A DNA stretch of 64,000 nt from Patescibacteria group bacterium (GTDB lineage: Bacteria > Patescibacteriota > Patescibacteriia > JACRDY01), in assembly GCA_041650515.1 (NCBI GenBank), contig JBAZLA010000001.1, forward strand, positions 18,710 to 82,709, written 5' to 3'. This document shows, piece after piece, positions 5,099 to 61,376 of this stretch (its first letter is position 1; every line of letters starts with the position of its first letter). The notes beneath the pieces are model-generated. The model worked only from the letters and a program-made list of their open reading frames with translations, was not told where the DNA came from and searched no databases. The position numbers and the translations under genes are program-made.

Positions 5099-5640
5099 AA
5101 GGCAAAGAAAAAAGCTAGTAACCTCTATCAATAATTAATTACCAATAAGGGTTACTAGCCTTAGCTTTTAAGGATATTTTTGGCTAAATTTAGCTAAATA
5201 TTTTCCTTTCTTGCCTCTAAAGACTAGCGTAGATTATCGCCTCGTAAGACTAACGTCACGGGGGAATTTGCTCCACTAATCCTCACTGGTAGCCACAGTA
5301 TAAAGCAAGATTAAAATGCTGTCAAGGAATAGTCCACAGTCCACAGTCCAAAACGGCTTTAATAAAGAAAAAACCGCCCCAAAGCGGATTTGTTATTGGC
5401 TCTGCCGACAGCCATCAGCTAACAGCCATCAGCTTATCAAAAACTCCACCATCGGCAGGCTGAAGATGATCTGGCTAAAAGCTAAGTGGGTGTCCGCAGT
5501 ACAGGCGCCACGGCGCTAGACAATGTGAGACTCCCATTACCAGATGATGACCCAGAACATAATCAACCCAAATGTCCGATAGTGAAGCTCGTCTTTATTA
5601 TACTCCTGCTGGTAAAAGGACGTCAACTTTGTTTAGTACA

Positions 5641-6222
5641 CAGTGCACAGTACCTAGTACACAGTTTAGCTAGATTTAATTATTTTTTTAGAACGATCTC
5701 ATCGTCGGGATATTAAGATACGATTGCTAATTAATAAACTAAAAACTATGACCACAAAAAGCTATCGTGACCTAATCGTTTGGCAAAAAAGTCTAAATTT
5801 GGTTTTAGCCACCTATGAATTGACTAAATGTTTCCCCAAAGAAGAACTTTTCGGGCTAACCACCCAAATCCGTCGGGCGGCTATTTCTATTCCTTCAAAC
5901 ATTGCCGAAGGCTACGGCCGCCGGTCTAACGGTGATTTTCGACGATTTCTCTTAATTGCCAAAGGATCCGCCCTAGAATTAGAGACTCAACTGCTAATAG
6001 CCAAGGAGTTAAAACTAACAGAAGACAACAAATTCACCAAAGCTGAATCATTACTAATTGAGGTGGCAAAATTACTTTACTGTTTTGTAAAAAAAATAAA
6101 ATAGGGATAAATACACAGTAACTAACTTCCCGAGTCAATTACAACCCCAGAGTTCCCTAGATAGACTTGGGAAGTTTAGTTTTTTCTAAAGTACTAGGTA
6201 CTGGGTACTAGGTACTAGTCAA
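5641..6222. mobile_element. Inverted-repeat cassette carrying four-helix-bundle gene 1; arms are GTACTAG/GTGCACA-type heptamer arrays
   Basis: Left arm cagtgcacagtacctagtacacag is the reverse complement of the right-arm type gtactaggtactgggtactaggtactag. Confidence 0.6.
5748..6104 (+). CDS. Four-helix-bundle protein of the 23S rRNA intervening-sequence family (TIGR02436-like, Avd-like fold)
   Basis: Translation MTTKSYRDLIVWQKS...IPSNIAEGYGRRS...ALELETQLLIAKEL is a hallmark of the family. ATG at 5748; the ORF finder begins at a TTG at 5724. Confidence 0.8.
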   Translation: MTTKSYRDLIVWQKSLNLVLATYELTKCFPKEELFGLTTQIRRAAISIPSNIAEGYGRRSNGDFRRFLLIAKGSALELETQLLIAKELKLTEDNKFTKAESLLIEVAKLLYCFVKKIK

Positions 6223-6291
6223 TAAAAAAAGGCGGGTGTTTAGTCCGCCAGGAAACGAAACGAATCGCCTCTCAGAAAATAATACTGCGGT

Positions 6292-6606
6292 TTAGGTCCA
6301 AAGCCGCTGGACCTGCCGCTTCAATGCACAGAGCCTCACATCCGGCTGACTACGCCGGAGGTGGTGAATGACACCAATCACGGTGCAAATCGCCGCTTGC
6401 CCGCGACCCGATTGAACCAAAGTCATAAAGGTCCGATGATCAACTTGCTGACCATTAACTTCGACTGGTTCTATTAACCTGCCCTCGATCAGAGCCACTG
6501 TGCCCGGATCGATCTCGATGGCTGGAAGACGACGGTGGCGCTGTTCCCCCGATCCTCTTAAAAGTTGAGAAATCGTGGTGCCACCTTGGGTGCCTGCGTC
6601 GGTCAT
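6292..6606 (-). CDS. Hypothetical 104-aa protein in a GC-rich segment, with a perfect SD (AAGGAGGGG) 6 nt before the ATG; immediately downstream of tRNA-Thr
   Basis: The only protein-like frame in this GC-rich stretch. It has a strong RBS, unlike native genes, and no recognisable family. Confidence 0.45.
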   Translation of the reverse strand: MTDAGTQGGTTISQLLRGSGEQRHRRLPAIEIDPGTVALIEGRLIEPVEVNGQQVDHRTFMTLVQSGRGQAAICTVIGVIHHLRRSQPDVRLCALKRQVQRLWT

Positions 6607-6686
6607 GTGCCCCTCCTTGTGTGCGGCTCATCAAGCCACACGTTTGTTGAACCATTTACTCCCTTGGGGGAGCTACCTACGATCAT

Positions 6687-6758
6687 AGACCCTGACAGGA
6701 TTCGAACCTGTGCGCAACCAGTACCAGTGGCTTGCTCTACCAACTGAGCTACAGGGTC
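6687..6758 (-). tRNA. tRNA-Thr, anticodon GGU
   Basis: Reverse complement folds as a cloverleaf. Acceptor GACCCUG/CAGGGUC, D-arm GCUC-AGUUGGUA-GAGC, anticodon arm AGCCA-CUGGUAC-UGGUU, T-arm ACAGG-UUCGAAU-CCUGU. 72 nt; no encoded CCA. Confidence 0.85.
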
Positions 6759-6762
6759 GTGA

Positions 6763-6869
6763 TAGTACATAGTACGTAGTACTTAGTACTTAGTACATGG
6801 AGTTTGAGACCAACCATTGTTGGGATATGACTCACTATGTACTGTGTACTAAGCACTACGTACTATTTA
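6763..6869. repeat. Long imperfect hairpin whose arms are tandem TAGTAC(N) heptamers (about 35-nt arms, about 33-nt loop), abutting the 5' side of tRNA-Thr
   Basis: Arm 1 is atagtacatagtacgtagtacttagtacttagtacat; the reverse complement of arm 2 is aaatagtacgtagtgcttagtacacagtacatagt. Confidence 0.8.
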
Positions 6870-28430: not shown

Positions 28431-28480
28431 GATGTCCGCTGTTCGCTAATGGCTCGCGAAATGCGAACCGCGAACCGCGG
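28431..28480. repeat. Short hairpin with GCGAACCGCGGACAGC-type arms (CGAACCG heptamer family)
   Basis: tgtccgctgttcgc...gcgaaccgcgaaccgcggacagc. Confidence 0.7.
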
Positions 28481-28484
28481 ACAG

Positions 28485-29186
28485 CTATTTAATTAACCCC
28501 TGCTTTCTCAAATATATTTCCGCCCGTTTTAAGTCATCCGGATAGCCGATGGGCAACCAATAATCAGTTTGGACGATTTTAACTGGATAACCATTAACCA
28601 TTTTAACGACTGTTTGTGGCAAGCCAAATTCTTTACCATCCTTAATCGGCGCTAAACTGTATTTAAAAACATTCTCATCCAAAACATAAAGGGCAGAATT
28701 AACTAGGCACTTAGTCCCAGGCATAAGTTCGGTTTCAACAATATCAATCAAATTACCAGCCTCATTAATCATCAAGGCGCCATAATTACGCAATTCTTCC
28801 GCCACAACTTCTTTAGCTAAGATACAGCGCTCTTGCGCTAAACATCGAACGACATCTTTGGCTTGATAAATATCATCCCCCATCAAAACTAAAAAGCGGC
28901 CCTTCAGTAATCCCCGACAACGCCATAGAGCATCGCCGGTACCTAATAATTCTGGCTGAATAACATAACTAATCTGGCGACCATCATATTCATTACCAAA
29001 ATATTTTTTGAGCTGCTCACCCAAATAACCCACCACCAAAATTACTTCATCAATTTCTTTAGGTAATTGCTCAATACTGTAGGCTAACAATGGCTTGCCT
29101 TGCACCGGCAGCATTGGTTTGGGTACTTCGTAAGTTAGGGGCCGCATTCGTACACCGGCACCAGCGGCTAGAATCACTGCTTGCAT
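28485..29186 (-). CDS. Sugar-phosphate nucleotidyltransferase (NTP_transferase family)
   Basis: MQAVILAAGAGVRMRPLT...KPML motif. Confidence 0.85.
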   Translation of the reverse strand: MQAVILAAGAGVRMRPLTYEVPKPMLPVQGKPLLAYSIEQLPKEIDEVILVVGYLGEQLKKYFGNEYDGRQISYVIQPELLGTGDALWRCRGLLKGRFLVLMGDDIYQAKDVVRCLAQERCILAKEVVAEELRNYGALMINEAGNLIDIVETELMPGTKCLVNSALYVLDENVFKYSLAPIKDGKEFGLPQTVVKMVNGYPVKIVQTDYWLPIGYPDDLKRAEIYLRKQGLIK

Positions 29187-32100
29187 TATTTTACTACTAT
29201 ATTAATCAACCGCCCGGGAACAAAAATCACTTTAACTATTTCTTTACCAGTTAAATAACTTTTTACTTTTGTATCCACTAAGACTAACTCTTTAGCCTCG
29301 GTTTCGCTAATATCCGCTTTGACTTGAATATTGGTTCGCATTTTGCCGTTAATCTGGATCACCAAAGTGATTTCTTCTTCCTTAACTAACTCCGGATCAT
29401 ACTTGGGCCAGCTCTGGCAAAAAATACTTTTTTGGTGACCAAGCGTTTGCCACAACTCTTCGGCTAAGTGGGGCGAAAACGGTGCCAAAATTTTTAAAAA
29501 CAATTCCAAATTTTCCTGACTGACTTCTTTGGCTTCTTGAAAACCATTGACCAAAATCATCATGGCCGAAATCGCGGTATTATAGCGCATGTTTTCAATA
29601 TCCTCAGTAACTTTTTTGATTGTTTGATGAACTAATTTGTCGCCTTGTACCTTGCTACTTGTTACTTTTTCTTGAAGCAACCAAACTTTATCCAAAAACC
29701 GCCGCACACCATTAATCCCTTTGGTACTCCAGGGCTTGGTGTCTTCAAGCGGCCCCATAAACATTTCATAGAGTCGCATGCTGTCCGCGCCAAAATCGCG
29801 AACCACATCATCGGGGTTAATCACATTACCACGCGATTTGGACATTTTTTGGCCGTCTTCGCCCAAGATCATGCCTTGGTTGCGAAGTTTGAGAAACGGT
29901 TCAGCAAAATTAATATAACCCAGATCATACAAAACTTTGGTAAAAAACCGCGCATACATCAAATGCAGTACCGCATGTTCCGCTCCGCCAACATAGAGAT
30001 CAACTGGTAGCCATTTATTAATTTCTTTCTGGCTAGCAAACTCTTTTTTGTTCTCTGGATCAGTGTAACGGAAATAATACCAAGATGAACAAACAAAAGT
30101 ATCCATAGTATCGGATTCGCGTTTGGCGGGAGCACCACAAACCGGACATTTAACATTGTGAAATTTTTTAGAATTGACCAACGGCGACTCACCAGTTGGT
30201 TTAAAATCAACATCATCTGGCAATAAAACTGGTAAATCTTTCTCTGGCACCGGGACTAAACCCGAATTAGAGCCTAAAGAAAATTCTTCTAAAATTTCTG
30301 GGAAAGACAACATTCCCACCCGGCGATTAGAATGACCACGGTTATTAAATATTCTCACCCGGGCGCCCAAAGGCTGATAATCTTTTTCGACCGCTAACGG
30401 AATATAAGGATCGTTGTCTGAAAGATAAATAACAATTTCTTTGGCTAGTTTTTTTACTCGGACTAAATCAATTTTAGCTTGATTAAAATGCTTGGCCGCC
30501 TCAATACTATTCACCTCGGCACCGGCCGTTCGCATATTGCTCCAATTCTCCTCACTCTGAGACGGACCGGTCGGCGCGACTAAAATTAATTTTTCTATTG
30601 GTAAACCAGTTACCTGAATATATTGGCAAACAGCCGGGGCGCTCAGGCTGTGAGCGACGATAAAAATTTTATCTTCTTTTTTAAAATTGAGACTCTGCAG
30701 CGCCGCCACCCACTCGGCAATTGTCGGCACGCTAGCATTAGGCAAAATTGGAATTAAAACTTCATAGCCGCTATTTTCTAGTTGCTCTTTGAGCCAAGGA
30801 AACCAATTATCGTTAGCGTGAGCATTAAGACCGTGGGTTAATAAAACCTTAGGTTTTTTCTGAGCACAATGATCACAATAAATCATCGGGATGGGCGCGC
30901 CCCAATAGCGCTGGCGCGATACCAGCCAATCGCGAAGTTTGTACTGCGTTTTTAACTGACCACCGACTTTTTGCGTAATTTTTTTCTTGGCTTCTTCACT
31001 GGTTAAACCATCAAACTCGCCGGAATTAATCATGGTGCCAGTGCCAACCCAACACTTATAAGCTAAATCGCTACTTAAATGGCCATAAGCGCCCGGGCTG
31101 GCCATGCCAGATTCTATCGGACTGGCTGCCATTAAACTTTCTGGTTTAATCACTTCAATTATCGGCAAACTAAATTTTTTGGCGAACTCATAGTCTCGTT
31201 CATCGTGCGCCGGCACCGCCATGATTGCTCCAGTGCCATAGCCAGTCAAGACATAATCAGCCACAAAAATCGGTATTTCTTTATTGGTTGCCGGATTGAT
31301 GGCTCTAATACCCTTTAATTCCACACCGGTCTTGGCTTTAGCTAAATCGGTTCTTTCGATTTCATTCTTCTTTTGGGCCAACTTAATGTATTGCTCAACT
31401 TCTTCCCAATTTTTAATTGCCAATTTTAAATTATTAATCAAACCATGCTCTGGCGCCAGCACCATATAAGTTACGCCAAAAAGTGTATCCGGCCGCGTGG
31501 TAAAAACTTTAATTTTTACTGGTTCGCGAACCGCGGACAGCGAACCGCGGACAGCGAATTCTAACTCTGCTCCCTCACTCCGGCCGATCCAATTTTTTTG
31601 CATCAGCTTAATCGGCTCGGGCCAATCAATTGTATCCAAATCATTGAGCAGTCTATCAGCATACTGAGTCACTTTAAAAAACCACTGCTCTAGGTCTTTT
31701 TGCACCACTTCGTTGTGACAACGTTCGCATTGACCGGCGACCACCTGCTCATTAGCTAGTACTGTCTGACAAGAATTACACCAATTAACTTTGGCTTTCT
31801 TTTTGTAAGCTAAACCGTTTTTATAGAGCAACAAAAAAAACCACTGCGTCCATTTGTAATATGCTGGATCAGAAGTTTTAATTTCGCGTGACCAGTCATA
31901 ACTCAGGCCCAGCGACTGGATCTGGCGTCGAAAAGTTTCAACACTTTTGTCAGTCGTTATCTGTGGATGAACTTTTTGCTTGATGGCAAAATTTTCCGCT
32001 GGTAGGCCAAAAGCATCCCAACCCATCGGGTGTAAGACATCATAACCATTGAGTCGCAGATAACGGGAATAAATATCCGTCGCGGTGTAACCCTCAGGAT

Positions 32101-32251
32101 GACCAACGTGTAAACCAGCGGCTGACGGATAAGGAAACATATCCAAAATATATTTTTTCTTTTGGGGACTCTTGGGCGCTTGGTTAATTTTCTCCTTAGC
32201 CCAATATTTCTGCCACTTGGCTTCTATCTCTTGATGAATATACTTATCCAT
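29186..32251 (-). CDS. leuS: Leucyl-tRNA synthetase carrying an inserted alpha/beta-hydrolase domain (YdeN/RBBP9 family, about 210 aa) in the zinc-knuckle region
   Basis: HVGH (HIGH) motif, TTRPDT editing motif, KMSKS motif. The insert VLLTHGLNAHANDNWFPWL...IVAHSLSAPA...LVAPTGP lies between CDHC and VPVPEKDLPVLLP. Confidence 0.95.
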   Translation of the reverse strand: MDKYIHQEIEAKWQKYWAKEKINQAPKSPQKKKYILDMFPYPSAAGLHVGHPEGYTATDIYSRYLRLNGYDVLHPMGWDAFGLPAENFAIKQKVHPQITTDKSVETFRRQIQSLGLSYDWSREIKTSDPAYYKWTQWFFLLLYKNGLAYKKKAKVNWCNSCQTVLANEQVVAGQCERCHNEVVQKDLEQWFFKVTQYADRLLNDLDTIDWPEPIKLMQKNWIGRSEGAELEFAVRGSLSAVREPVKIKVFTTRPDTLFGVTYMVLAPEHGLINNLKLAIKNWEEVEQYIKLAQKKNEIERTDLAKAKTGVELKGIRAINPATNKEIPIFVADYVLTGYGTGAIMAVPAHDERDYEFAKKFSLPIIEVIKPESLMAASPIESGMASPGAYGHLSSDLAYKCWVGTGTMINSGEFDGLTSEEAKKKITQKVGGQLKTQYKLRDWLVSRQRYWGAPIPMIYCDHCAQKKPKVLLTHGLNAHANDNWFPWLKEQLENSGYEVLIPILPNASVPTIAEWVAALQSLNFKKEDKIFIVAHSLSAPAVCQYIQVTGLPIEKLILVAPTGPSQSEENWSNMRTAGAEVNSIEAAKHFNQAKIDLVRVKKLAKEIVIYLSDNDPYIPLAVEKDYQPLGARVRIFNNRGHSNRRVGMLSFPEILEEFSLGSNSGLVPVPEKDLPVLLPDDVDFKPTGESPLVNSKKFHNVKCPVCGAPAKRESDTMDTFVCSSWYYFRYTDPENKKEFASQKEINKWLPVDLYVGGAEHAVLHLMYARFFTKVLYDLGYINFAEPFLKLRNQGMILGEDGQKMSKSRGNVINPDDVVRDFGADSMRLYEMFMGPLEDTKPWSTKGINGVRRFLDKVWLLQEKVTSSKVQGDKLVHQTIKKVTEDIENMRYNTAISAMMILVNGFQEAKEVSQENLELFLKILAPFSPHLAEELWQTLGHQKSIFCQSWPKYDPELVKEEEITLVIQINGKMRTNIQVKADISETEAKELVLVDTKVKSYLTGKEIVKVIFVPGRLINIVVK

Positions 32252-34308: not shown

Positions 34309-35634
34309 CTAATAGCCTCTAATTTTCATTGCTACCGCCACCCGCTTGATGCCCAAAATAAAAGCAGCGGTGCGCAGATCAATTTTCTTTTCTTTGGCGA
34401 TTGATTCAACACTAATAAAAGCTTTATCCATGACTACTTTTAGCCGTTTAGCCACTTCTTCTTCACTCCAATTTTCCCGATGCAGGTTTTGCAACCACTC
34501 AAAATAAGAAACCGTCACCCCGCCCGCATTAACCAAAACATCGGGGACAACAATTATCCCCCGCTTGTTTAATTTAACATCCGCTTCGGGCGTGGTTGGG
34601 CCATTGGCAATTTCCAAAATTACTTTAGCTTTGATCTTGCCGGCGTTTTGGGCCGTAATCTGATTTTCCAACGCCGCCGGGATCAAAATATCACACGGCA
34701 TTTCTAAAAGCTTGGCGCTAGCCATATGTTTATGTTCCACTTCATCACAAACCGAACCAGTGCAGTAATAACCATCAACCAAGCCTTTTTGTTTTTTAAT
34801 CTTCATTGTGCTTTCTGGGTGGAAAGAATCACCATTGGGTGAGTAGATACCGCCTTTAGAATCAGCTAAGCCAACTACACGGTAGCCAGCTCGATTAACC
34901 AGCTGAGCAATATGATAACCGGCATTACCAAAACCTTGGATAATCACTCGCAAACCACCTTTTGACTTTCGTACGGGCAAGTCGCGACTTGCCCCTGCTT
35001 TCATTTTCTTAACCACGTTTTCTAAAACATAGAACGCACCCTGAGCTGTCGCCGTATCGCGACCAAGCGACCCGCCGATTTCTACCGGTTTGCCGGTCAC
35101 AACGGCTGGTACTGGATAACCTTTAATTTTGGAGAACTCATCCATGATCCAAGCCATAATCTGCGGATTAGTATAAACATCGGGCGCCGGCACATCTTTA
35201 AGCGGGCCAATATATTCCTGAATCGCCTGAACATAGCCTCGAGTCATCCGTTCCAGCTCGCCAACGGACATTTTTTTGGGATCAACTTTGATCCCGCCTT
35301 TACCGCCGCCAAAGGGGATATCCACCACGGCGCATTTGACCATCATCCAAAAAGCCAAGGCCTTAACCTCATTAATATCCGATTGCGGATAATAACGGAT
35401 GCCACCCTTAAACGGACCACGAGCATCATTATACTGCACCCGATAGCCTTCAAAATTCTTGATCTGGCCATTATCCATCTTAACTGGCACAGTAAAATGT
35501 AACGCTCGCTTGGGTGAACGAAGTTTATCCAAAATCTCCGGATCAAGATCAAGATATTTGGCAGCCAAGTCTAGTTGTTTTAAAGCGTTGGTAAATGGGT
35601 TGGCAGTTCGCGGTTCGCGGTTCGCGGTTCGCAT
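34309..35634 (-). CDS. gdhA: Glutamate dehydrogenase
   Basis: Lys-Gly active-site region KGGIRY...GGGKGG. The first 12 codons, starting at the ATG at 35632-35634, lie within the (GCGAACC)n repeat and encode RTANREPRTANP. Confidence 0.9.
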   Translation of the reverse strand: MRTANREPRTANPFTNALKQLDLAAKYLDLDPEILDKLRSPKRALHFTVPVKMDNGQIKNFEGYRVQYNDARGPFKGGIRYYPQSDINEVKALAFWMMVKCAVVDIPFGGGKGGIKVDPKKMSVGELERMTRGYVQAIQEYIGPLKDVPAPDVYTNPQIMAWIMDEFSKIKGYPVPAVVTGKPVEIGGSLGRDTATAQGAFYVLENVVKKMKAGASRDLPVRKSKGGLRVIIQGFGNAGYHIAQLVNRAGYRVVGLADSKGGIYSPNGDSFHPESTMKIKKQKGLVDGYYCTGSVCDEVEHKHMASAKLLEMPCDILIPAALENQITAQNAGKIKAKVILEIANGPTTPEADVKLNKRGIIVVPDVLVNAGGVTVSYFEWLQNLHRENWSEEEVAKRLKVVMDKAFISVESIAKEKKIDLRTAAFILGIKRVAVAMKIRGY

Positions 35635-36120
35635 ATACAAAGTTTAGAAAATTTTAATATTGAATATTTTATACTAGTTTTATTAACTAATTAGCAAATA
35701 CAACTTTATGATGATTAAATCATACAAAGACCTACTCGTCTGGCAGGTAGGAATTGAGCTAGTAATAGCTACCTATGAGCTAACAGAGCAATTCCCGAAA
35801 AAAGAACAATTTGGACTAACCTCGCAGATTAGAAGAGCCTCAATCTCTATCCCATCTAATGTCGCCGAGGGTTATCAACGTAAAACTGATGGGGAACTTT
35901 TACGTTTCTTATTGATTGCTCTCGGTTCGGCCTCTGAACTAGAAACTCAACTTTTTTTAGCCAAAAAATTGAAAATGACATCCGAGGAATACTTTCTAAG
36001 AATAGATAATTTGTTAACACGAGTACTCCAGCTTACCAACTCTTTTATCAATAAACTACGCAAGGATACCGGGCGAACAGCGAACCGCGGCCAGCGAACC
36101 GCGGCCAGCGAACCGCAACA
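35595..36120. mobile_element. Inverted-repeat cassette carrying four-helix-bundle gene 2; left arm (GCGGTTC)x3-4, right arm (CAGCGAACCGCGGC)x3
   Basis: The flanks are reverse-complementary heptamer arrays. The cargo gene is antisense to both neighbours. Confidence 0.65.
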
Positions 36121-36133
36121 AACTAACCGCTGA
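35708..36133 (+). CDS. Four-helix-bundle protein of the 23S rRNA IVS family, copy 2
   Basis: MMIKSYKDLLVWQVG...IPSNVAEGYQRKT...ASELETQLFLAKKL is paralogous to the 5748..6104 product. The C-terminal 20 aa are encoded by the flanking repeat. Confidence 0.8.
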   Translation: MMIKSYKDLLVWQVGIELVIATYELTEQFPKKEQFGLTSQIRRASISIPSNVAEGYQRKTDGELLRFLLIALGSASELETQLFLAKKLKMTSEEYFLRIDNLLTRVLQLTNSFINKLRKDTGRTANRGQRTAASEPQQTNR

Positions 36134-37328
36134 CCTTTAAATATTGCTCCAGCCCCCGGGCAAACACCATCATCGCTTCTTTTAACTCCTTAGTATTCAA
36201 AACGTAAGCGATTCTAATTTCATTTTGGCCTTTGCCCGGCGTGGAATAAAAATCCTCGGCTGGCGTGACCATTACTGTTTTACCTTGATAATTAAATTTG
36301 GTCAACAGCCATTTGACTAAATCCTCACTATTTCGGACTGGCAACCCGACTATCAGATAAAAGGTGGCTTCCGGCTGGAATAAAGTTAACCCCGGTATTT
36401 TCTCAAGTTCACCATAAACAACATCGCGACGCCGGCGGTATTCTAAATTAAGCTTTTTAATATACTGCTTGCTATTTTTCAATACAGGCACAAAAGCCAA
36501 CTGCTCTAACGTGGGTGAAGAAAGCCGCGCCTGAGCGAATTTTAAAATATTAGCCATCAGCTCTTTATTCGACGAAATTAAACAGCCAACGCGAGAGCCA
36601 CAAGCCGAAAACTTTTTAGACACGCTGTCAGTAACAATCACCTGCTGACGAACGGCTGGAAAGTCCAACAAACTCGGTGCTCGCTGGCCAATAAAAGTTA
36701 GCTCACGGTAGGTTTCGTCAGCGATAATAAACAACCCGCGCTTTTTAGCAACTTTGACTAAAACACTTAATTCTTTTTTGCTGTAAATCCGGCCAGTCGG
36801 ATTATTAGGATTGATAATTACAATTGCTTTGGTCCGACGGGTAATCTTTTTTCTCAACTCCGCCGCGCTGGGTAGACTAAAATTATTATCTAGTTTTAAA
36901 GTGATCGGCACCAGCTTTACCCCAGTCATTTTGGCAAAACTTTTGTAGCTAGAATAACCTGGCTCAAAAATAATTATTTCATCACCCGGATCAGCCACGG
37001 CCAGCAAACTAAAAATAATTGCCTCACTGCCGCCAGTGGTGATCATAATATCTTCGGTCTTAACTCTGATTCCCCAATCAGCATAAAACTTTTGCCAGGC
37101 TTGCCGCGCGGTTAGGTAACCCAGTGATGGCGCGTAAGGAATTAATCTGTCTTTTTTCTGAAGTTTCAAAATCTCTTGCCAAACCGAAACCGGTGGCAAA
37201 ATATCGGGCTGACCAATATTAAGCTTAAAAATCTTAAGCCCTTTTTTTTCGGCTGCCTCAGCTAGGGGCAAAAATTTACGGATTGGCGAAGCAATGGTTT
37301 GTCGTGCCCGTTTAGAAGTTTGTAACAT
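36123..37328 (-). CDS. Class I/II PLP-dependent aminotransferase (Asp/Ala aminotransferase-like)
   Basis: NPNNPTG ... SVSKKFSACGSRVG carries the Lys-containing motif. Confidence 0.85.
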   Translation of the reverse strand: MLQTSKRARQTIASPIRKFLPLAEAAEKKGLKIFKLNIGQPDILPPVSVWQEILKLQKKDRLIPYAPSLGYLTARQAWQKFYADWGIRVKTEDIMITTGGSEAIIFSLLAVADPGDEIIIFEPGYSSYKSFAKMTGVKLVPITLKLDNNFSLPSAAELRKKITRRTKAIVIINPNNPTGRIYSKKELSVLVKVAKKRGLFIIADETYRELTFIGQRAPSLLDFPAVRQQVIVTDSVSKKFSACGSRVGCLISSNKELMANILKFAQARLSSPTLEQLAFVPVLKNSKQYIKKLNLEYRRRRDVVYGELEKIPGLTLFQPEATFYLIVGLPVRNSEDLVKWLLTKFNYQGKTVMVTPAEDFYSTPGKGQNEIRIAYVLNTKELKEAMMVFARGLEQYLKVSG

Positions 37329-37338
37329 ATCTATTATA

Positions 37339-37432
37339 AAGTATGCGGCATACAGTATTTAGCATGCAGACGTCGGATACCACCGTTCCTAAAAAATGAT
37401 CCCTACATACTGCATACCGCATACTGTATACT
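37339..37432. repeat. Hairpin element with AGTATGC heptamer arms, between the aminotransferase and trxB
   Basis: agtatgcggcatacagtat...tacatactgcataccgcatactgtatac. Confidence 0.8.
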
Positions 37433-41246: not shown

Positions 41247-41945
41247 ATGAGAACGAATATGTTTATACTTATCAATAAACCCGCCGGTTGGACATCGCAT
41301 GACGTGATTGGCCGGCTGCGCCGGATTACTGGCGAAAAACGCATTGGCCACGCCGGCACGCTTGACCCCTTTGCCACCGGTCTTTTGATTGTGGCCATTA
41401 GTCGCGAATCAACCAAACAAATCGATCAATTTGTAAAACTAAACAAAGAATATCTAGCCACAATTAAACTCGGCGCGACTACTGATACTTATGATAAAAC
41501 TGGAAAGATACAGAAAAGCAAAGAAGCAATAAAACAAGAAAACAAAAATATTAAAAAGGCTTTAGAATCGTTCATTGGCCCCCAGTTGCAGATCCCGCCA
41601 ATGTTTAGCGCCAAAAAAGTAAACGGCAAAAAACTCTACGAATTGGCCCGACGAGGCAAGGAAATTGAGAGAAAACCGAGCCAGATTAATATTACTGATT
41701 TAGAAATTATTGACTATCACTGGCCGGATTTGAAAATTAAAGTTAACTGCTCCTCTGGCACCTATATCCGCAGCTTGGCCCATGATCTGGGAATTAAGCT
41801 GGGTTGCGGCGGGTATTTAGAAGAATTAACTCGAACTAAAATTGGTAATTTTGATTTAAAAAATGCAATTACTCTAGATAAATTAACACCGGAAAACTGG
41901 CAAACGCTAGTTCATAGTACAGAGTACACAGTACCCAGTATCTAA
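41247..41945 (+). CDS. truB: tRNA pseudouridine(55) synthase
   Basis: HAGTLDP catalytic Asp motif. The last roughly 10 codons overlap an AGTACAN heptamer array. Confidence 0.9.
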
Positions 41946-43762: not shown

Positions 43763-45331
43763 TTAATGTTTAAACGCCCTAATCCCAGTGAAAACCATCA
43801 CCAAACCCTGTTCATCCGCCGCTTTGATTACTGTTTCGTCATTAATCGACCCACCCTGTTGGGCGATAACCGCCACACCGGCTTTAGCAATCAATTCGAT
43901 ACTATCAGGAAATGGAAAAAAACTATCTGAACAAAGCACGCTGCCTTTAACCTTATCACCAGCTTTTTTAATCGCAATCTCCACCGAATCAACTCGCGAC
44001 ACCTGACCGCAACCCACGCCGAGCGTGGTTTTATTTTGGGAGATTAAAATAGCGTTAGAATTCATATTCTTCATCACTTGCCAGTTAAATAATATTTCCT
44101 CAATCTGGGCTTTAGTCGGTTGATTTTCAGTTACTACCTTCAAGTCCTCTTTTTTCAAATGATAAGTGTCATAATCTTGAATCAACATCCCACCCTCTAC
44201 TTGCCGCAGGTTTAAACCGATCTTTTCTGATTTAATTTCTCCCAGCTCAAGAATTCTAATATTCTTTTTTTGCTGCAAAATTTCTAGCGCCCCAGCTTCG
44301 TAGCTTGGCGCCATCACTATTTCGGCAAACACTTTATTGATCGCTTCAGCGATTTTTTTGGTTAGTGGCCGGTTGAGCGCGATTACCCCGCCAAAAGCCG
44401 ACTTACTATCCGCGTCATAAGCTTGCTGAAAAGCAATATCAATATTTTGGTGGACTGATACGCCGCAGGGGTTACCATGTTTAACCACCACCGCCACTGG
44501 CTCAATAAATTCTTTAACAATATTTAGAGTGCGATCGGCATCAACAATATTATTAAACGACAATTCTTTGCCGTGCAAAATTTTAGCGTTAATCACATTA
44601 CAGCCACTATTATCAATCTCTTTATACGCCGCGGCGGCTTGATGCGGGTTTTCACCATAACGACAGTCATAAAACTTTTGATAATTTAAATTGAGTTGAG
44701 CGGGAAATTTGCTATCGGTCACCGGCCACCGGCCACCGGCTGATAGATAATTATAAATTGTTGAATCATAAAGCGCCGTATGAGCAAAAGCGCGTTGCAT
44801 CAATTGCTCACGCAGTTCATAGCTCAAGCCGCCTTTAGTTTTGAGCTCGGCCAACACTTCCGCGTAGTCCGCCGGATCAACCACCACGCCAACCCAGCCA
44901 CAATTCTTGGCCGCGGCGCGCACCATGGTCGGTCCGCCAATATCAATATTTTCAATCACTTCATCCAAACTAACGCCGGACTTCTTAATCACTTGCGAAA
45001 ATGGATAGAGATTAACCACCACTAGATCAATAAATTCGATCCCCTGACTTTTGGCCACGACTTGGTGCTCTTTATTGTCGCGCAAGGCTAAAATGCCACC
45101 GTGAATCTTGGGGTGCAAGGTTTTGACCCGACCGTCCATCATCTCGGGAAAACCAGTGTAGTCGCTGACTTCTTTAACCTTGATTTTAGCTTCTTTTAAT
45201 TTTTTAAATGTCCCGCCGGACGACAAAATCTCCACGCCCATCTTATCTAGCTCTTGAGCGAACTCGACTATGCCGGTCTTATCAAAAACTGAGATAAGAG
45301 CGCGTTTGATTTGAACTAGTGATTGATTCAT
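43763..45331 (-). CDS. purH: Bifunctional AICAR transformylase / IMP cyclohydrolase
   Basis: MGS-like and AICARFT domains. Contains an in-frame (CACCGGC)x3 array at 44710-44730, encoding GGRWPVT. Confidence 0.95.
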   Translation of the reverse strand: MNQSLVQIKRALISVFDKTGIVEFAQELDKMGVEILSSGGTFKKLKEAKIKVKEVSDYTGFPEMMDGRVKTLHPKIHGGILALRDNKEHQVVAKSQGIEFIDLVVVNLYPFSQVIKKSGVSLDEVIENIDIGGPTMVRAAAKNCGWVGVVVDPADYAEVLAELKTKGGLSYELREQLMQRAFAHTALYDSTIYNYLSAGGRWPVTDSKFPAQLNLNYQKFYDCRYGENPHQAAAAYKEIDNSGCNVINAKILHGKELSFNNIVDADRTLNIVKEFIEPVAVVVKHGNPCGVSVHQNIDIAFQQAYDADSKSAFGGVIALNRPLTKKIAEAINKVFAEIVMAPSYEAGALEILQQKKNIRILELGEIKSEKIGLNLRQVEGGMLIQDYDTYHLKKEDLKVVTENQPTKAQIEEILFNWQVMKNMNSNAILISQNKTTLGVGCGQVSRVDSVEIAIKKAGDKVKGSVLCSDSFFPFPDSIELIAKAGVAVIAQQGGSINDETVIKAADEQGLVMVFTGIRAFKH

Positions 45332-55421: not shown

Positions 55422-56750
55422 TTAATTCGTAATTATTTTCTGTATTTCCTGTGAATAAGGATTAGCTAAAATATTTTTTTGAATTACTTCTTGAATCTTA
55501 TTTTCTGGACCAGTTAATTGCCATAGGGTGCGCTTGGTGACCCTACCCACACCTTTAATACCCAGCCGCTCGGTCAAGGTCCCGAGTTTACTTTGGCCAA
55601 TCACATCATCTTTATATTTAACTAAATAATTGGCCGCCTGATTCACTATTTCGGCTTGATCTATATCTGACCAACTACCATCTTTATTAAATTTTTTAAG
55701 TCCAGCGGGAAATTTAACGTAAGCAATTTCCTTACTGGTATTAAGCAGTTCATTTGATAAAATAATTTCCTTGATGAGCTGTCGACTGTTGGCTGTTGGC
55801 TGTTGGCTAAGCTCAACTTCCCAGTGACTTTTCTTTTTAATATCAACATCGGTATAACCTAGACGTTTAACCGCGCTATCCAGCGTCCGCGCCTCATTAT
55901 CAGTAATAATTAAATCCACAAAAATCTCCACCGAGTTCGGCGCCGGTTGATAAACCGACAACTCACTAACCTCTTTAGGCTGGTATTCTAACTTTTGACT
56001 TTTGACTTTTGACTTTTGACTTATATATTCCCGCAAGCTCTCAAAAATACACTGCCCGTCAGCCGTCCGCTCGGGGTGCGGCATAATCGCCATGACATTA
56101 CCCACGGGATTGCAAACAGCGGCTAAATTGTAAATCGCGCCATTGGGGTTAGTGGGAAAATCTTCTTTAATCTGACCCTGCTCGTCACAGTAGCGCCAAA
56201 CAGTCTGACCGTTCTGAATCAATTCTTGGAGTAAACTTTCTTCCATCATAAACCGACCTTCACCATGAGCCACCGGTAAACGAAAACGATGTTCTTTTTC
56301 TATATTATAGTTAAAAGCACAGCGACCCTTGGGCACGTCATTCTTAATATTAACCCAGGTGTTATAGAAACCAGTTCCCAGCACTTTGCCGTCTTGGATC
56401 CGTTTATTAACTGCCAGTGCCGCGGCTAATTTCTCGCCGGTCACTCCTGGCACTAAGCCAGATTCCAGAACAATCTGAGCACCATTACAAATCCCTAATA
56501 CTGGCTTACCCTTAACGGCTTGCGACTTAATCACCGCCATCAATGGATCAAGCGAGGCAATCATTCCCGACCGCACCCGGTCTTCATAACTAAAACCGCC
56601 GGGGATGATATAACCGTCGTAATTATCTAGTTTGCTATAATCATCATTCCAACGAAAAAACTCACCCTGCATGCCCGCAGCGTTAACCGCCCGCCGAGTT
56701 TCATACTCGCAGTTTAGACCGGGAAATTGAATTATGGCAATTTTGATCAT
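55422..56750 (-). CDS. purQ: FGAM synthase PurQ (glutaminase) fused to C-terminal PurS-like domain(s)
   Basis: N-terminus IKIAIIQFPGLNCEY with the GICNGAQ Cys motif. C-terminus VEIFVDLIITDNEARTLDSAVKRLGY...ANPYSQE is PurS-like. The linker is encoded by a (CTTTTGA)x4 array. The true start is the ATG at 56750; the supplied ORF runs on into the palindromic element. Confidence 0.85.
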   Translation of the reverse strand: MIKIAIIQFPGLNCEYETRRAVNAAGMQGEFFRWNDDYSKLDNYDGYIIPGGFSYEDRVRSGMIASLDPLMAVIKSQAVKGKPVLGICNGAQIVLESGLVPGVTGEKLAAALAVNKRIQDGKVLGTGFYNTWVNIKNDVPKGRCAFNYNIEKEHRFRLPVAHGEGRFMMEESLLQELIQNGQTVWRYCDEQGQIKEDFPTNPNGAIYNLAAVCNPVGNVMAIMPHPERTADGQCIFESLREYISQKSKVKSQKLEYQPKEVSELSVYQPAPNSVEIFVDLIITDNEARTLDSAVKRLGYTDVDIKKKSHWEVELSQQPTANSRQLIKEIILSNELLNTSKEIAYVKFPAGLKKFNKDGSWSDIDQAEIVNQAANYLVKYKDDVIGQSKLGTLTERLGIKGVGRVTKRTLWQLTGPENKIQEVIQKNILANPYSQEIQKIITN

Positions 56751-59024: not shown

Positions 59025-61376
59025 CTATAATTTACTTCTTAACCCCTCCAGCCAAACTCGGGCCATTGTTGAAATATCTAAATTAATCCAATCATTAATT
59101 TTAAACTGACCATCAGCTGTGGTCTGACCCAGCTTCTGGGCTTGAACACCAAATTGGTTCATGATATCTTTAAACTTTTTTTCATCACTGACTTCGCAAA
59201 CAAACCCACCCGTTTCGGAAAATAGAAACTCAAAATTTTTGACTTTTGACTTTTGACTTTTGACTTCTATTCCCATCCGCTTTTCTCCGTGTCCGCCAAA
59301 ACACATCTCCGCTAATGTCGTCACTATTCCACCATCAGAAATATCGTGGCAAGCATTCACCACGCCCTGACTAATACTCTCCGCCACCGCCCAAATCTGA
59401 TTTTGGACCTGGGTAAAATCCGGTTTGGGTAGATTAGCCCCGAGCTCACCAATCAAATCATAAAGCACTGAACCGCCGAGCTCATCTTTTCTTTCACCAA
59501 CTAAATAAATCGCGCTACCCGGTTTTTTAAACTCCATGGTGACGGCTTGATTATAATCAGCTAACCGACCAACACAAGCAATAATCGGCGACGGCGCCAC
59601 GCTACCATTTTTTGATTCATTATAAAAACTAACATTACCCGAAATAATTGGGACAGCATTTTCTGGATATTCTTTGAGGTGTATACCTTTGCACGCCTCG
59701 GCCACGCCTTTGGTGCCTTGGACAAACTCCCACATCTGCTCGGGCTTTTCAGGATTACCAAAACAAAGACAATCCGTAATACATTGTGGTGTCGCGCCCA
59801 CCGCCGCCACATTGCGCATGGCTTCACAAACCGCGTTGGCACCGCACCAATAAGCATCAATCAGGCCATAACGGGGGTTGTGATCAACGGCTAGTGCCAT
59901 ACCCACTTTTTTGATCTCGTCAGGCCATTCTGGCTCTAAAAATGGCGCCAAAACACCGGCATCAGCTTGGCCCGACTCAATAATAGTTTGGCCTTGAACC
60001 TGCTTATCATATTGCTCATAAACTGCTAGGCGCGAGGCCACATTCTCGTGGGCCAAAACGTCTAGAACAGTTTTATTCAAATCTAAATTAGCTAATTTGC
60101 TAGAATCTGGTTCGGTCAAATTTTTCGTCCCCGGCAAATACTCGCGATTGTAAAGCAGACCTTCAGTCACCTGCTTACTTGGCGCATCAACTATTTTGGT
60201 GCCTTGATAATAGACCACATAATTACCATTGGTCACTTTGCCAATCACTGACGCCTGCGCGCCTTCGGATACTTTAGGCAGCGCCCAGCGCTCATTATAA
60301 TGAGAAACAATTAACGACGTAACATCAGGATGAGCTACCCACATAAACCGTTCTTGTGTTTCGGAACATAAAACCACCGATGGGTGTAAACCAGCCATCG
60401 AAATATGAACTTTTTCTAAATCAATATCCGCTCCCATCCCGGCACTATCCACTAGCTCAACCGAAGCACAACAAACACCGCCGGCGCCTAAATCTTTAAA
60501 ACCAACTTTAGCTAACAAATTTTTTTCTTTCAAAATTTTAAAAAGTTCGTAGGTGCTCTCAAGTAAATGACGTTTTAAAAAAGCATTGGGCTCCTGCACT
60601 GCGCCTTTATTTTGTTCTTTCTGCGTTTCGTCCAGCTCGAGTGAAGCAAACGATGCGCCACCAAAGCCAGAATTATCAGTCGGCTTGCCAACCAAAATGA
60701 TGTCATAACCTAGACTGTCTTTTGGCGCGCGAGAATGAATAACGTCGGATTCTCTTATCACCCCAATTGAGACAACGTTTACCAAACAATTGTCATTATA
60801 TGATGGATGGTAATATAGATCGCCAGCAATATTGGGTACGCCAATCGGGTTGCCATAGCCAGCAATGCCGCTAACCACGCCATCGTGAATCCATTTAGTT
60901 TTGTGAGTTTTAATATCGCCAAAACGAAGCGGATCAGCGCAAGCAATTACCTTGCCACCCATACAGATAACATCGCGGACAATACCGCCAATGCCGGTAG
61001 CCGCGCCTTCGTAGGGCACAATCTGCGAGGGATGGTTATGACTTTCATGAGAAATAATAATGCCATAACGATCACCATTGTTATCGCGAGCGATTTCAAT
61101 AATCCCCGAGTCCTCTTGTGGCCCAAGAATAACATTTGGCGCATCAGTGACAAACTGCTTAAGATGGGGCCGGGAACTTTTATATGAACAATGCTCGCTG
61201 CCTTCAATCCCCCAAACAACGGCTTCAGTCAGGGTTGGCGGTCGCTTAAGAATCTCAGTCTCAACTTTGCGCGCTTCAGCCACAGTTAAAGCAATGCCGT
61301 ATTTTTTTAGCATTTGTTTTACCTCATCATCCGAGTATTTGCTGAATTCGAGAATTGTTTCTTGAAATTGACTCAT
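59025..61376 (-). CDS. purL: FGAM synthase II (PurL, small form)
   Basis: Two AIRS and AIRS_C repeats. Contains an in-frame (TTTTGAC)x4 array at 59236-59267, encoding EVKSQKSKVK. Confidence 0.95.
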   Translation of the reverse strand: MSQFQETILEFSKYSDDEVKQMLKKYGIALTVAEARKVETEILKRPPTLTEAVVWGIEGSEHCSYKSSRPHLKQFVTDAPNVILGPQEDSGIIEIARDNNGDRYGIIISHESHNHPSQIVPYEGAATGIGGIVRDVICMGGKVIACADPLRFGDIKTHKTKWIHDGVVSGIAGYGNPIGVPNIAGDLYYHPSYNDNCLVNVVSIGVIRESDVIHSRAPKDSLGYDIILVGKPTDNSGFGGASFASLELDETQKEQNKGAVQEPNAFLKRHLLESTYELFKILKEKNLLAKVGFKDLGAGGVCCASVELVDSAGMGADIDLEKVHISMAGLHPSVVLCSETQERFMWVAHPDVTSLIVSHYNERWALPKVSEGAQASVIGKVTNGNYVVYYQGTKIVDAPSKQVTEGLLYNREYLPGTKNLTEPDSSKLANLDLNKTVLDVLAHENVASRLAVYEQYDKQVQGQTIIESGQADAGVLAPFLEPEWPDEIKKVGMALAVDHNPRYGLIDAYWCGANAVCEAMRNVAAVGATPQCITDCLCFGNPEKPEQMWEFVQGTKGVAEACKGIHLKEYPENAVPIISGNVSFYNESKNGSVAPSPIIACVGRLADYNQAVTMEFKKPGSAIYLVGERKDELGGSVLYDLIGELGANLPKPDFTQVQNQIWAVAESISQGVVNACHDISDGGIVTTLAEMCFGGHGEKRMGIEVKSQKSKVKNFEFLFSETGGFVCEVSDEKKFKDIMNQFGVQAQKLGQTTADGQFKINDWINLDISTMARVWLEGLRSKL

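Follow-up and report, generated by a model that had tools for sequence, protein, structure and literature searches.

How does a small gene come to stand between two mirror-image arrays of 7-nt repeats, and do the gene and the arrays belong together? This question is raised by a 64,000-nt stretch of DNA from a Patescibacteria group bacterium (GenBank assembly GCA_041650515.1, contig JBAZLA010000001.1; the whole stretch is called the window throughout), in which a gene of the four-helix-bundle family PF05635 lies between gdhA and a class I/II aminotransferase gene. The bundle gene is encoded on the plus strand, opposite to both neighbours on the minus strand, and it is enclosed by inverted heptamer arrays, referred to as the left and the right arm; together they are called the gdhA-side cassette. 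A first-pass annotation of the window had described this antisense cassette and had noted another one of the same build with different heptamer units, cassette 1. Both descriptions were borne out, the former by the sequence, by Tandem Repeats Finder (TRF) and by folding, and the latter by the arm units, which are of the AGTACAC/GTACTAG type in cassette 1 and of the GGTTCGC/GCGAACC type in the gdhA-side cassette.

The answer to the second part of the question comes from the family as a whole. PF05635 loci were collected by exact-protein look-ups (Candidate Phyla Radiation (CPR), Nomurabacteria, and Chryseobacterium), from one JGI locus, the single return of a metagenome-contig scan with the gdhA-side protein, and by a viral-contig scan (54 loci), and 43 non-redundant loci were left after dropping proteins that were more than 85% identical. 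For each gene, the upstream flank of 160 nt was compared with the reverse-complemented downstream flank of equal length, and an inverted-repeat score of at least 28 was taken as enclosure. The left arm matched the right arm of the same locus at this score in 31 of the 43 loci (72%), while only 2 of 168 other genes of the same loci, which served as controls (1.2%), and 19 of 1806 pairings of the left arm of one locus with the right arm of another reached it. The architecture is therefore not a product of chance, and it is recurrent in PF05635 loci. When a locus's own arms were compared in direct orientation, 4 of 43 loci passed the threshold. Enclosure was found in five phyla, in viral contigs and on plasmids.

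The arms share a build but not a sequence. Their self-identity is 0.62 at a lag of 7 nt and 0.58 at a lag of 14 nt compared with approximately 0.25 at other lags, the cassette periodicity is 7 or 14 nt in 25/31 and 8 nt in 6/31 enclosed cassettes, and the arm unit is specific to each locus. Arms have a median length of 28 nt; the left arm ends 0–101 nt before the open reading frame (ORF), and the median distance from the end of the domain to the right arm is 4 nt, so that array-encoded C-termini are common. Moreover, the arms are polar: a G-rich 5' arm is combined with a C-rich 3' arm in 35 of 38 cassettes (L083–L169), with 409 G vs 154 C (p = 7e-8), and this G-rich-first polarity of an inverted repeat applies on both strands. 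Several left arms end in a Shine-Dalgarno-like GGAG right before the ATG, and the matching right arms resemble an anti-Shine-Dalgarno sequence. Arrays of the same unit also occur outside the cassette, at 8 of the 31 enclosed loci vs 3 of 155 cross controls.

Plasmids carry the cassette as well. A tblastn search of plasmids returned 49 records, approximately 40 of them cyanobacterial, and heptamer arms were present in 7 of 10 copies examined (N. punctiforme, T. variabilis, Calothrix, Geminocystis, Stanieria, Riemerella, and Azospirillum). In the copy on a Nostoc 7120 plasmid the left flank is missing because of an insertion sequence. On a plasmid of Pseudanabaena galeata (L168; NZ_CP112875.1, 46.0–46.8 kb) the bundle gene stands next to cas6 on one side and cas4 on the other and has direct, not inverted, arrays, with (AAAGCTA)x18 upstream and (AAAAGCC)x10 downstream. 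Two tandem bundle genes with common ACGTTGA arrays are found in L142 (3–734).

By its profile matches, the 141-aa product of the bundle gene in the window is a member of PF05635/TIGR02436. PF05635 aligns with E 7e-35 and 119.8 bits (cut-off 33.8) over positions 1–105 of its 106, TIGR02436 with E 2e-34 and 118.1 bits (cut-off 24), and NF008911 with 137.6 bits (cut-off 137). Residues 7–111 constitute the PF05635 domain, and residues from approximately 122 to 141 are encoded by the right array. All 22 of the 22 invariant columns of the family alignment A1 are retained, and the motif G-x2-R-x3-S-x3-N-x2-E, given for the bundle family in PMC3936711, is present as GLTSQIRRASISIPSNVAEG. A four-helix-bundle fold is predicted for the protein from its sequence matches to the solved structures 2GSC (E 1e-21), which is the Xanthomonas protein XCC0516, and 2RLD; the NCBI entry is likewise named "four helix bundle protein [Patescibacteria group bacterium]". 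A connection of the bundle family to HEPN found no support in the literature searched.

Coordinates of the gdhA-side cassette, its neighbours and the other features of the window (positions counted from the first nucleotide of the window).
Feature	Position	Strand	Basis or remark
PF05635/TIGR02436 four-helix-bundle gene	35708-36133	+	141 aa; Pfam and NCBIfam profiles, PDB 2GSC match
Left arm (GGTTCGC)x5	35598-35632		TRF, inverted-repeat search; (GCGAACC)n on the minus strand
Right arm (CAGCGAACCGCGGC)x2.8, alternating GCGAACC/GCGGCCA units	36073-36116		TRF
AT-rich leader, left arm to ORF	35633-35707	+	75 nt; leader alignment
gdhA (Glu/Leu/Phe/Val dehydrogenase)	34309-35634	-	Pfam; 441 aa in two assemblies
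Class I/II aminotransferase	36123-37328	-	Pfam
ORF-less inverted heptamer hairpin, AGTATGC/CATACTG type	37335-37432		48-nt loop; between trxR and aminotransferase
Cassette 1	5635-6218	+	left arm 5635-5665, AGTACAC type; right arm 6191-6218, GTACTAG x4
Cassette 1 ORF	5748-6104	+	118 aa; PF05635 E 1e-39
ORF-less hairpins (arm starts)	6762/6834, 24130/24175, 27391/27454, 28434/28455, 37335/37406, 41916/42007, 50390/50445		
Small ORF-less hairpin with the unit of the gdhA-side arms (GCGAACCGCGGACAGC)	28434-28480		between pfkB and NTP-transferase gene
Solo array with the unit of the gdhA-side arms (GCGAACCGCGGACA x2.4)	31525-31558	-	inside leuS
Solo array in purH	44716-44740		
Solo arrays in purQ-like gene (474 aa)	55778-55808, 55991-56022		
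Solo array in purL	59237-59266		
Array at truB 3' end	41916-41940		

The arms of the gdhA-side cassette are predicted to pair. An inverted-repeat search matches 35598–35632 with 36080–36114, i.e., 35 nt that are 80% complementary with 447 nt between them, and the score of 35 compares with at least 32 in just 1 of the 168 control genes. Both the minimum free energy and the centroid folds of 35585–36135 have the arms paired on both strands, with z-scores of -4.4 (plus strand) and -6.3 (minus strand), and 0 of 100 shuffled sequences were as stable. The right array is reported by TRF as a 14-mer with 100% matches at 36078–36116 and in a period-7 row at 36073–36113, and a decayed extension of the right arm reaches approximately 36128, over the stop codon of the aminotransferase gene. 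The arrays do not qualify as CRISPR, as the units stand head-to-tail with no spacers between them, and Rfam gave no match at the arms. An assembly artefact is ruled out because the region is identical in the ENA assembly ERZ27247363 (a 472.5-kb contig) and in the Logan assembly of another run, SRR8542065 (an 8.5-kb contig); the array length is the same in two contigs with the exact proteins, which are 100% identical.

Between left arm and ORF lies the AT-rich leader. Its motif GTTTAGAA..TTTTAAT is common to this cassette and three other CPR cassettes, and the leaders of these four align at 68% mean column identity, whereas their arms have no common sequence; the core is thus homologous, and the arms have been replaced or rebuilt at each site. 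A sigma-70 promoter scan of the leader gave no signal above the shuffle background, and cassettes of the Bacteroidota type have TAnnTTTG promoter boxes (-7 boxes) inside the arms, at a position equivalent to the leader. Presumably, the promoter of the cassette is located in this leader, as is that of gdhA on the opposite strand.

By prediction, both arrays are translated in part. On the minus strand the left array, (GCGAACC)n, codes for residues 1–12 of the Glu/Leu/Phe/Val dehydrogenase (GDH), MRTANREPRTAN, and the outermost unit of the left arm, GGTTGGC, spans the conserved A-N-P codons. Relatives of GDH start with M-x(1-4)-NPF, while the protein of the window reads M-RTANREPRTA-NPF. The ATG at 35634 is the sole start that preserves the conserved N-terminus and no downstream start does so, from which it follows that the left array is predicted to add 10 residues to GDH; two independent gene calls also give the 441-aa protein. 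The first-pass annotation had proposed this translation of the left array, and it remains a prediction in the light of the N-termini of the relatives. Its second proposal, that the right array forms the C-terminal tail of the bundle protein, was upheld: the tail, RTANRGQRTAASEPQQTNR, comprises approximately 20 residues and is found in none of the bundle homologues, which typically have 112–137 aa and cover approximately 82% of the query. The GDH peptide and the bundle peptide both contain RTANR because the arms are mirror images of each other. The statement that the arrays spill into both adjacent coding sequences is correct for gdhA but not for the aminotransferase gene, as the main right array lies outside its coding sequence and only the decayed end (approximately 36128) reaches its stop codon and the two codons before it; the other coding sequence that the arrays enter is that of the bundle gene itself. 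For genome annotation this means that array-derived N- or C-terminal extensions and loop insertions have to be reckoned with, in this window in GDH, LeuRS, PurH, PurL, and TruB.

Comparison of the junction with related genomes, as suggested in the first-pass annotation, supports an insertion. In the three nearest relatives (L001, L002, and L003; GDH 55–58% identical, with 58% for the nearest GDH relative in the genome contigs scanned) trx, trxR, and gdhA are contiguous, and neither the aminotransferase gene nor the bundle gene is present at this junction; tblastn against the relatives found trx and trxR but not the aminotransferase. Since trxR lies directly beside gdhA in all three, the extra segment of approximately 2.1 kb in the window is regarded as inserted. 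It consists of an ORF-less heptamer hairpin, the aminotransferase gene and the cassette, so that the aminotransferase gene is bounded by the hairpin on one side and by the cassette on the other. The gap between trxR and gdhA is 6 nt in L001, and L002 has an ORF-less heptamer hairpin (AAAGTTA/TTTTGAC; 2548–2650) exactly at this position, extending up to the gdhA start codon. L001 (OZ246416.1, an 886-kb chromosome labelled "uncultured Gammaproteobacteria") is rich in heptamer arrays and syntenic with the window (IF2-trx-trxR-gdhA...leuS with a hydrolase insert), and its taxonomic label is probably wrong.

The build of the cassette suggests a comparison with the intervening sequences (IVSs) of ribosomal RNA (rRNA) genes, known from Coxiella burnetii, Leptospira, Xanthomonas, and Brucella and from 16S and 23S rRNA genes of CPR bacteria. 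The IVS of the Coxiella 23S rRNA gene has a homologous ORF, a 28-bp stem of terminal inverted repeats and tandem heptamers of variable copy number, and it is excised by RNase III (PMC4990558); a PF05635-type ORF is also found in rRNA insertions of CPR bacteria (bioRxiv 10.1101/2024.02.27.582315). The gdhA-side cassette resembles these elements in the PF05635 "S23p" protein encoded in the loop, in the terminal inverted repeats closing a long stem, in its size (approximately 520 nt vs 428–444 nt in Coxiella) and, in the Coxiella case, in the tandem heptamers. It differs from them in its position between gdhA and the aminotransferase gene, with no rRNA in the window according to Rfam, in its arms, which consist wholly of heptamer arrays and are partly translated in two proteins, and in its orientation antisense to the host transcript.

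The reading that we favour, and for which we consider the chances to be evenly balanced, is that the cassette is a hairpin element of the IVS type outside rRNA that was inserted at the trxR-gdhA junction and whose arms can fold into a duplex of the RNase III type. It would represent a small autonomous unit in which the conserved leader and the PF05635 ORF make up the loop, and reverse-complementary tandem arrays of 7-nt units the arms, of a long hairpin. Together with the aminotransferase gene and the ORF-less heptamer hairpin, this unit would have been inserted into an ancestral trx-trxR-gdhA string. A read-through transcript running from the aminotransferase gene to gdhA would fold the arms into an imperfect duplex of approximately 35 bp, of the type that RNase III excises from the IVS of 23S rRNA, and the element could thereby be clipped from the host RNA; promoters in the leader would drive the bundle gene and gdhA. 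The arms may be unstable microsatellites that grow by slippage, into the 5' end of gdhA and into the 3' end of the bundle gene, the array-encoded residues being translated harmlessly. Because the core is homologous between cassettes and the arms are site-specific, the core would most likely occupy or rebuild pre-existing heptamer hairpins instead of carrying fixed terminal repeats.

Several points weigh against this interpretation. RNase III cleavage at the cassette is proposed solely by analogy with the rRNA IVSs, and an rnc gene is absent from the 64-kb window. Mismatches of the arms on the sense strand comprise 31 G.U and 22 A.C, which is no clear bias, and selection on the stem as RNA rather than as DNA is therefore not proven. 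With a promoter inside the arms, the cassette's own mRNA would contain one arm only. An RNase III stem does not account for the 7-nt periodicity or for the G-rich polarity of the 5' arm, and cleavage in the left arm would remove codons 1–12 of gdhA from the read-through transcript.

Periodicity and dispersal are accounted for by the main rival explanation, which we regard as possible but rather improbable: a two-component repeat system similar to REP-associated tyrosine transposases (RAYTs) and their repetitive extragenic palindromic (REP) sequences. The bundle protein would bind units of 7–8 bp with approximately one protomer per unit, and it would maintain or spread arrays of its own unit in DNA, the enclosed gene being the master copy and the hairpins and in-gene arrays being its offspring. 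That bAvd, a relative of the PF05635 family, is a nucleic-acid-binding pentamer fits this idea; 2GSC and 2RLD have five chains each, as expected of pentamers. Each cassette has its own unit, and the excess of same-unit arrays outside the cassettes given above points in the same direction. Within the window the unit of the gdhA-side cassette recurs in a small hairpin between pfkB and the nucleoside triphosphate (NTP)-transferase gene and in leuS, where the array is translated as FAVRGSLSAVREP in a variable loop of LeuRS; with at most one mismatch, GCGAACCGCGG has 11 matches vs 0.64 expected, all except one of them in 28.4–36.1 kb. Arrays of the AGTAC/AGTAT type, like the arms of cassette 1, are present at six further sites of the window. 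As in REP/REPIN-RAYT systems, the gene is flanked by an inverted short repeat that is also dispersed as hairpins at gene junctions; unlike in those systems, the cargo is a 120-aa helical bundle (PF05635) in place of an HUH (Y1) transposase, tandem microsatellite arrays take the place of a fixed palindrome of 20–35 nt, and there is no sign of catalysis. Further points speak against a two-component system: no catalytic motif is known in the protein, its binding is putative, no recombinase gene is found nearby among the window ORFs, arrays of ACTTTTG, CGGCCAC, GCTGTTG, and ATTCGTA have no same-unit cassette in the 64 kb, and heptamer arrays can be produced by polymerase slippage alone (a hypothesis cited in PMC4692102).

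The taxa in which heptamer repeats have been described (Nostocales, Xanthomonas, Bacteroidetes, and Beggiatoaceae; PMC4692102, PMC4679880) overlap with those rich in PF05635, as illustrated by the cyanobacterial majority of the plasmid matches and by the Xanthomonas origin of 2GSC, and this overlap also supports a two-component system. The repeats reported are GGGAATC in Xanthomonas and GGGGATT in Nostoc (PMC4692102) and TAACTGA in Beggiatoaceae, cyanobacteria, and Bacteroidetes (PMC4679880); X. campestris has 70 convergent inverted heptamer pairs (PMC4692102), and heptamer repeats occasionally lie within ORFs (PMC4679880). The arrays of the window are like these bacterial heptamer repeats, including the short tandemly repeated repetitive (STRR) sequences of Calothrix and Nostoc, in being over-represented tandem 7-mers, mostly intergenic and often in inverted pairs; the published repeats vary in length among relatives, and their mechanism is described as unexplained. 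However, in the published cases a single unit dominates each genome and no gene is associated with it, while the window has locus-specific units with a PF05635 gene between them, and Patescibacteria are not among the taxa reported. The open-access literature searched contains no paper that links PF05635, TIGR02436, or S23p with heptamer or STRR repeats; the bundle family is not mentioned in PMC4692102 or PMC4679880, and the nearest link is that of the three heptamers in the Coxiella IVS (PMC4990558).

Alternatively, gene and arrays may have no functional link, the bundle gene being an ordinary small gene among heptamer hairpins that were made by slippage and that may act as terminators or insulators. 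This is unlikely, although arrays are abundant: TRF found 22 arrays of period 7 with at least 2.8 copies in the window vs 1–2 at each of the periods 5, 6, 8, and 9, most of them not beside a bundle gene, and this genome-wide background was overlooked when the first-pass annotation argued from two cassettes. ORF-less hairpins are likewise present at many gene junctions of the window (six to seven, with loops of 26–67 nt), of L001, and of L002, and control flanks in PF05635 loci are slightly enriched at lag 7 (12.1 vs approximately 10.5). Just two of the array pairs in the window bear an ORF, cassette 1 (inverted-repeat score 32–34) and the gdhA-side cassette. The absence of a link is strongly disfavoured by the enclosure frequencies in PF05635 loci, control genes, and cross-locus pairs. 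Against it stand also the occurrence of enclosure across phyla, viral contigs and plasmids, the pairing of the arms across approximately 440 nt around the ORF and not locally, and the start of the right arm so close to the domain end.

The first-pass annotation had concluded on a mobile family rather than chance. The exclusion of chance and the insertion have stood, but mobility in the sense of a transposon has not, and a classical terminal-inverted-repeat transposon or an element like a miniature inverted-repeat transposable element, with its transposase in trans, is very improbable. Inverted ends, small size and sites between genes and within operons would be in line with it: cassettes interrupt the conserved operons ruvC|yebC, trmD|KH, moxR|DUF58, type IV secretion system operons, and cas6|cas4 in either orientation, and one is also known at cmr3|cmr2 (PMC3936711). 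The presence of such elements in rRNA, on plasmids and in viral contigs likewise speaks for mobility. Furthermore, the cassettes of the IMG/VR contigs L107, L109, and L112 (approximately 1940–2400) are 95–100% identical, compared with 67–90% for the flanking genes, as after lateral spread; this suggests a recent lateral exchange of the cassette or an unusually strong constraint. However, the arms are wholly different between copies even within one genome, as neither the two window cassettes nor the CPR cassettes with alignable leaders share arm sequence. There is no target-site duplication either: in 30 cassettes, the longest substring shared by the two outer 14-nt flanks had a mean length of 3.43 vs 3.12 in mismatched pairs. 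Searches of the approximately 55 ORFs of the window revealed neither a transposase nor an integrase nor a reverse transcriptase, and the bundle protein is the sole ORF product of the cassette. Alignment of the two cargo proteins, proposed as a check in the first-pass annotation, gave only 58% identity, which means that no recent copying within the genome took place, and the arms are not shared.

Vertical inheritance and decay also argue against a transposon. The cassette at moxR|DUF58 is complete in two Chryseobacterium species, in which it diverges at a rate equal to that of its flanks; the orthologous cassette of C. taihuense has a truncated ORF of 68 aa, and in C. turcicum the ORF is gone, with unrelated sequence instead and arm remnants only (decay series L158 3583–3789 and L160 3542–3703). 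By sequence comparison, the Chryseobacterium cassette is thus best described as vertically inherited and decaying. The first-pass annotation had taken conservation of arrangement and arms among related genomes to speak for an old structural gene rather than an insertion, and such conservation does occur in this other lineage, where species share the cassette with conserved arms and some decay. A second ORF of 116 aa in some Chryseobacterium contigs was considered as an insertion polymorphism of the bundle gene and rejected, as it encodes an unrelated protein.

That the bundle gene is the accessory (Avd) gene of a diversity-generating retroelement is scarcely credible, for although PF05635 and bAvd are related in fold and family and the cassette 1 protein is a weak bAvd match (E 2.7e-4, 21.8 bits), this lies below the cut-off of 40, the gdhA-side protein has no bAvd match, a reverse transcriptase is missing among the window ORFs, and the only repeats are heptamer arrays, with no pair of template and variable repeats.

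Copies of PF05635 number in the thousands in metagenomes, and single genomes of cyanobacteria and Bacteroidota contain many of them; for this very common family we know of no function described since the 1990s beyond its occurrence in rRNA intervening sequences. Enclosure around most of the examined relatives may link this family to the unexplained excess of 7-base repeats, and we tentatively put forward, as a conceivable though doubtful generalization, that PF05635 genes and tandem heptamer (sometimes octamer) arrays constitute one widespread system with own-unit arrays spread to gene junctions and coding sequences. If this is true, the family would be the missing partner of the heptamer-repeat excess reported since 1990, initially for the cyanobacterial STRR sequences and later for Xanthomonas, Beggiatoaceae, and Bacteroidetes; the heptamer system would extend to Patescibacteria, and the rRNA IVS would be the special case of an element that landed in an rRNA hairpin. 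With family-wide enclosure, the fixed G-rich-first polarity and the nearby same-unit arrays, two unexplained features can be joined in a single hypothesis that is open to testing. A link of the whole family to heptamer arrays is absent from the open-access literature searched; an IVS-type cassette outside rRNA would be a variant of a known element.

Further arrays of the window lie within housekeeping genes, where they are perfect or near-perfect and are read through; the unit ACTTTTG (x4.3–4.6) occurs in two different purine genes. The relatives L001, L002, and L004 are likewise rich in period-7 arrays. The best ORF-less heptamer hairpin of the window, at 6762–6866 (score 46, loop of 36–39 nt), adjoins a tRNA-Thr gene (6687–6758, minus strand) on one side and a terminator-like stem on the other. 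Around cassette 1 and near this tRNA gene, the stretches at approximately 5200–5620 and 6240–6680 are GC-rich (50–57% vs 41% overall); they contain neither a convincing ORF nor, even at E 0.1, an Rfam match, and they may be unrecognised structured RNAs. A candidate array in leuS at 31406–31432, with its equivalent in L001, was rejected, its periodicity being that of the conserved peptide NLKLxIKNW. The leuS gene itself (29186–32251, minus strand) encodes a Ser_hydrolase (alpha/beta hydrolase) domain that is inserted at residues 470–655, and the same insertion is found in L001 (9077–12643).

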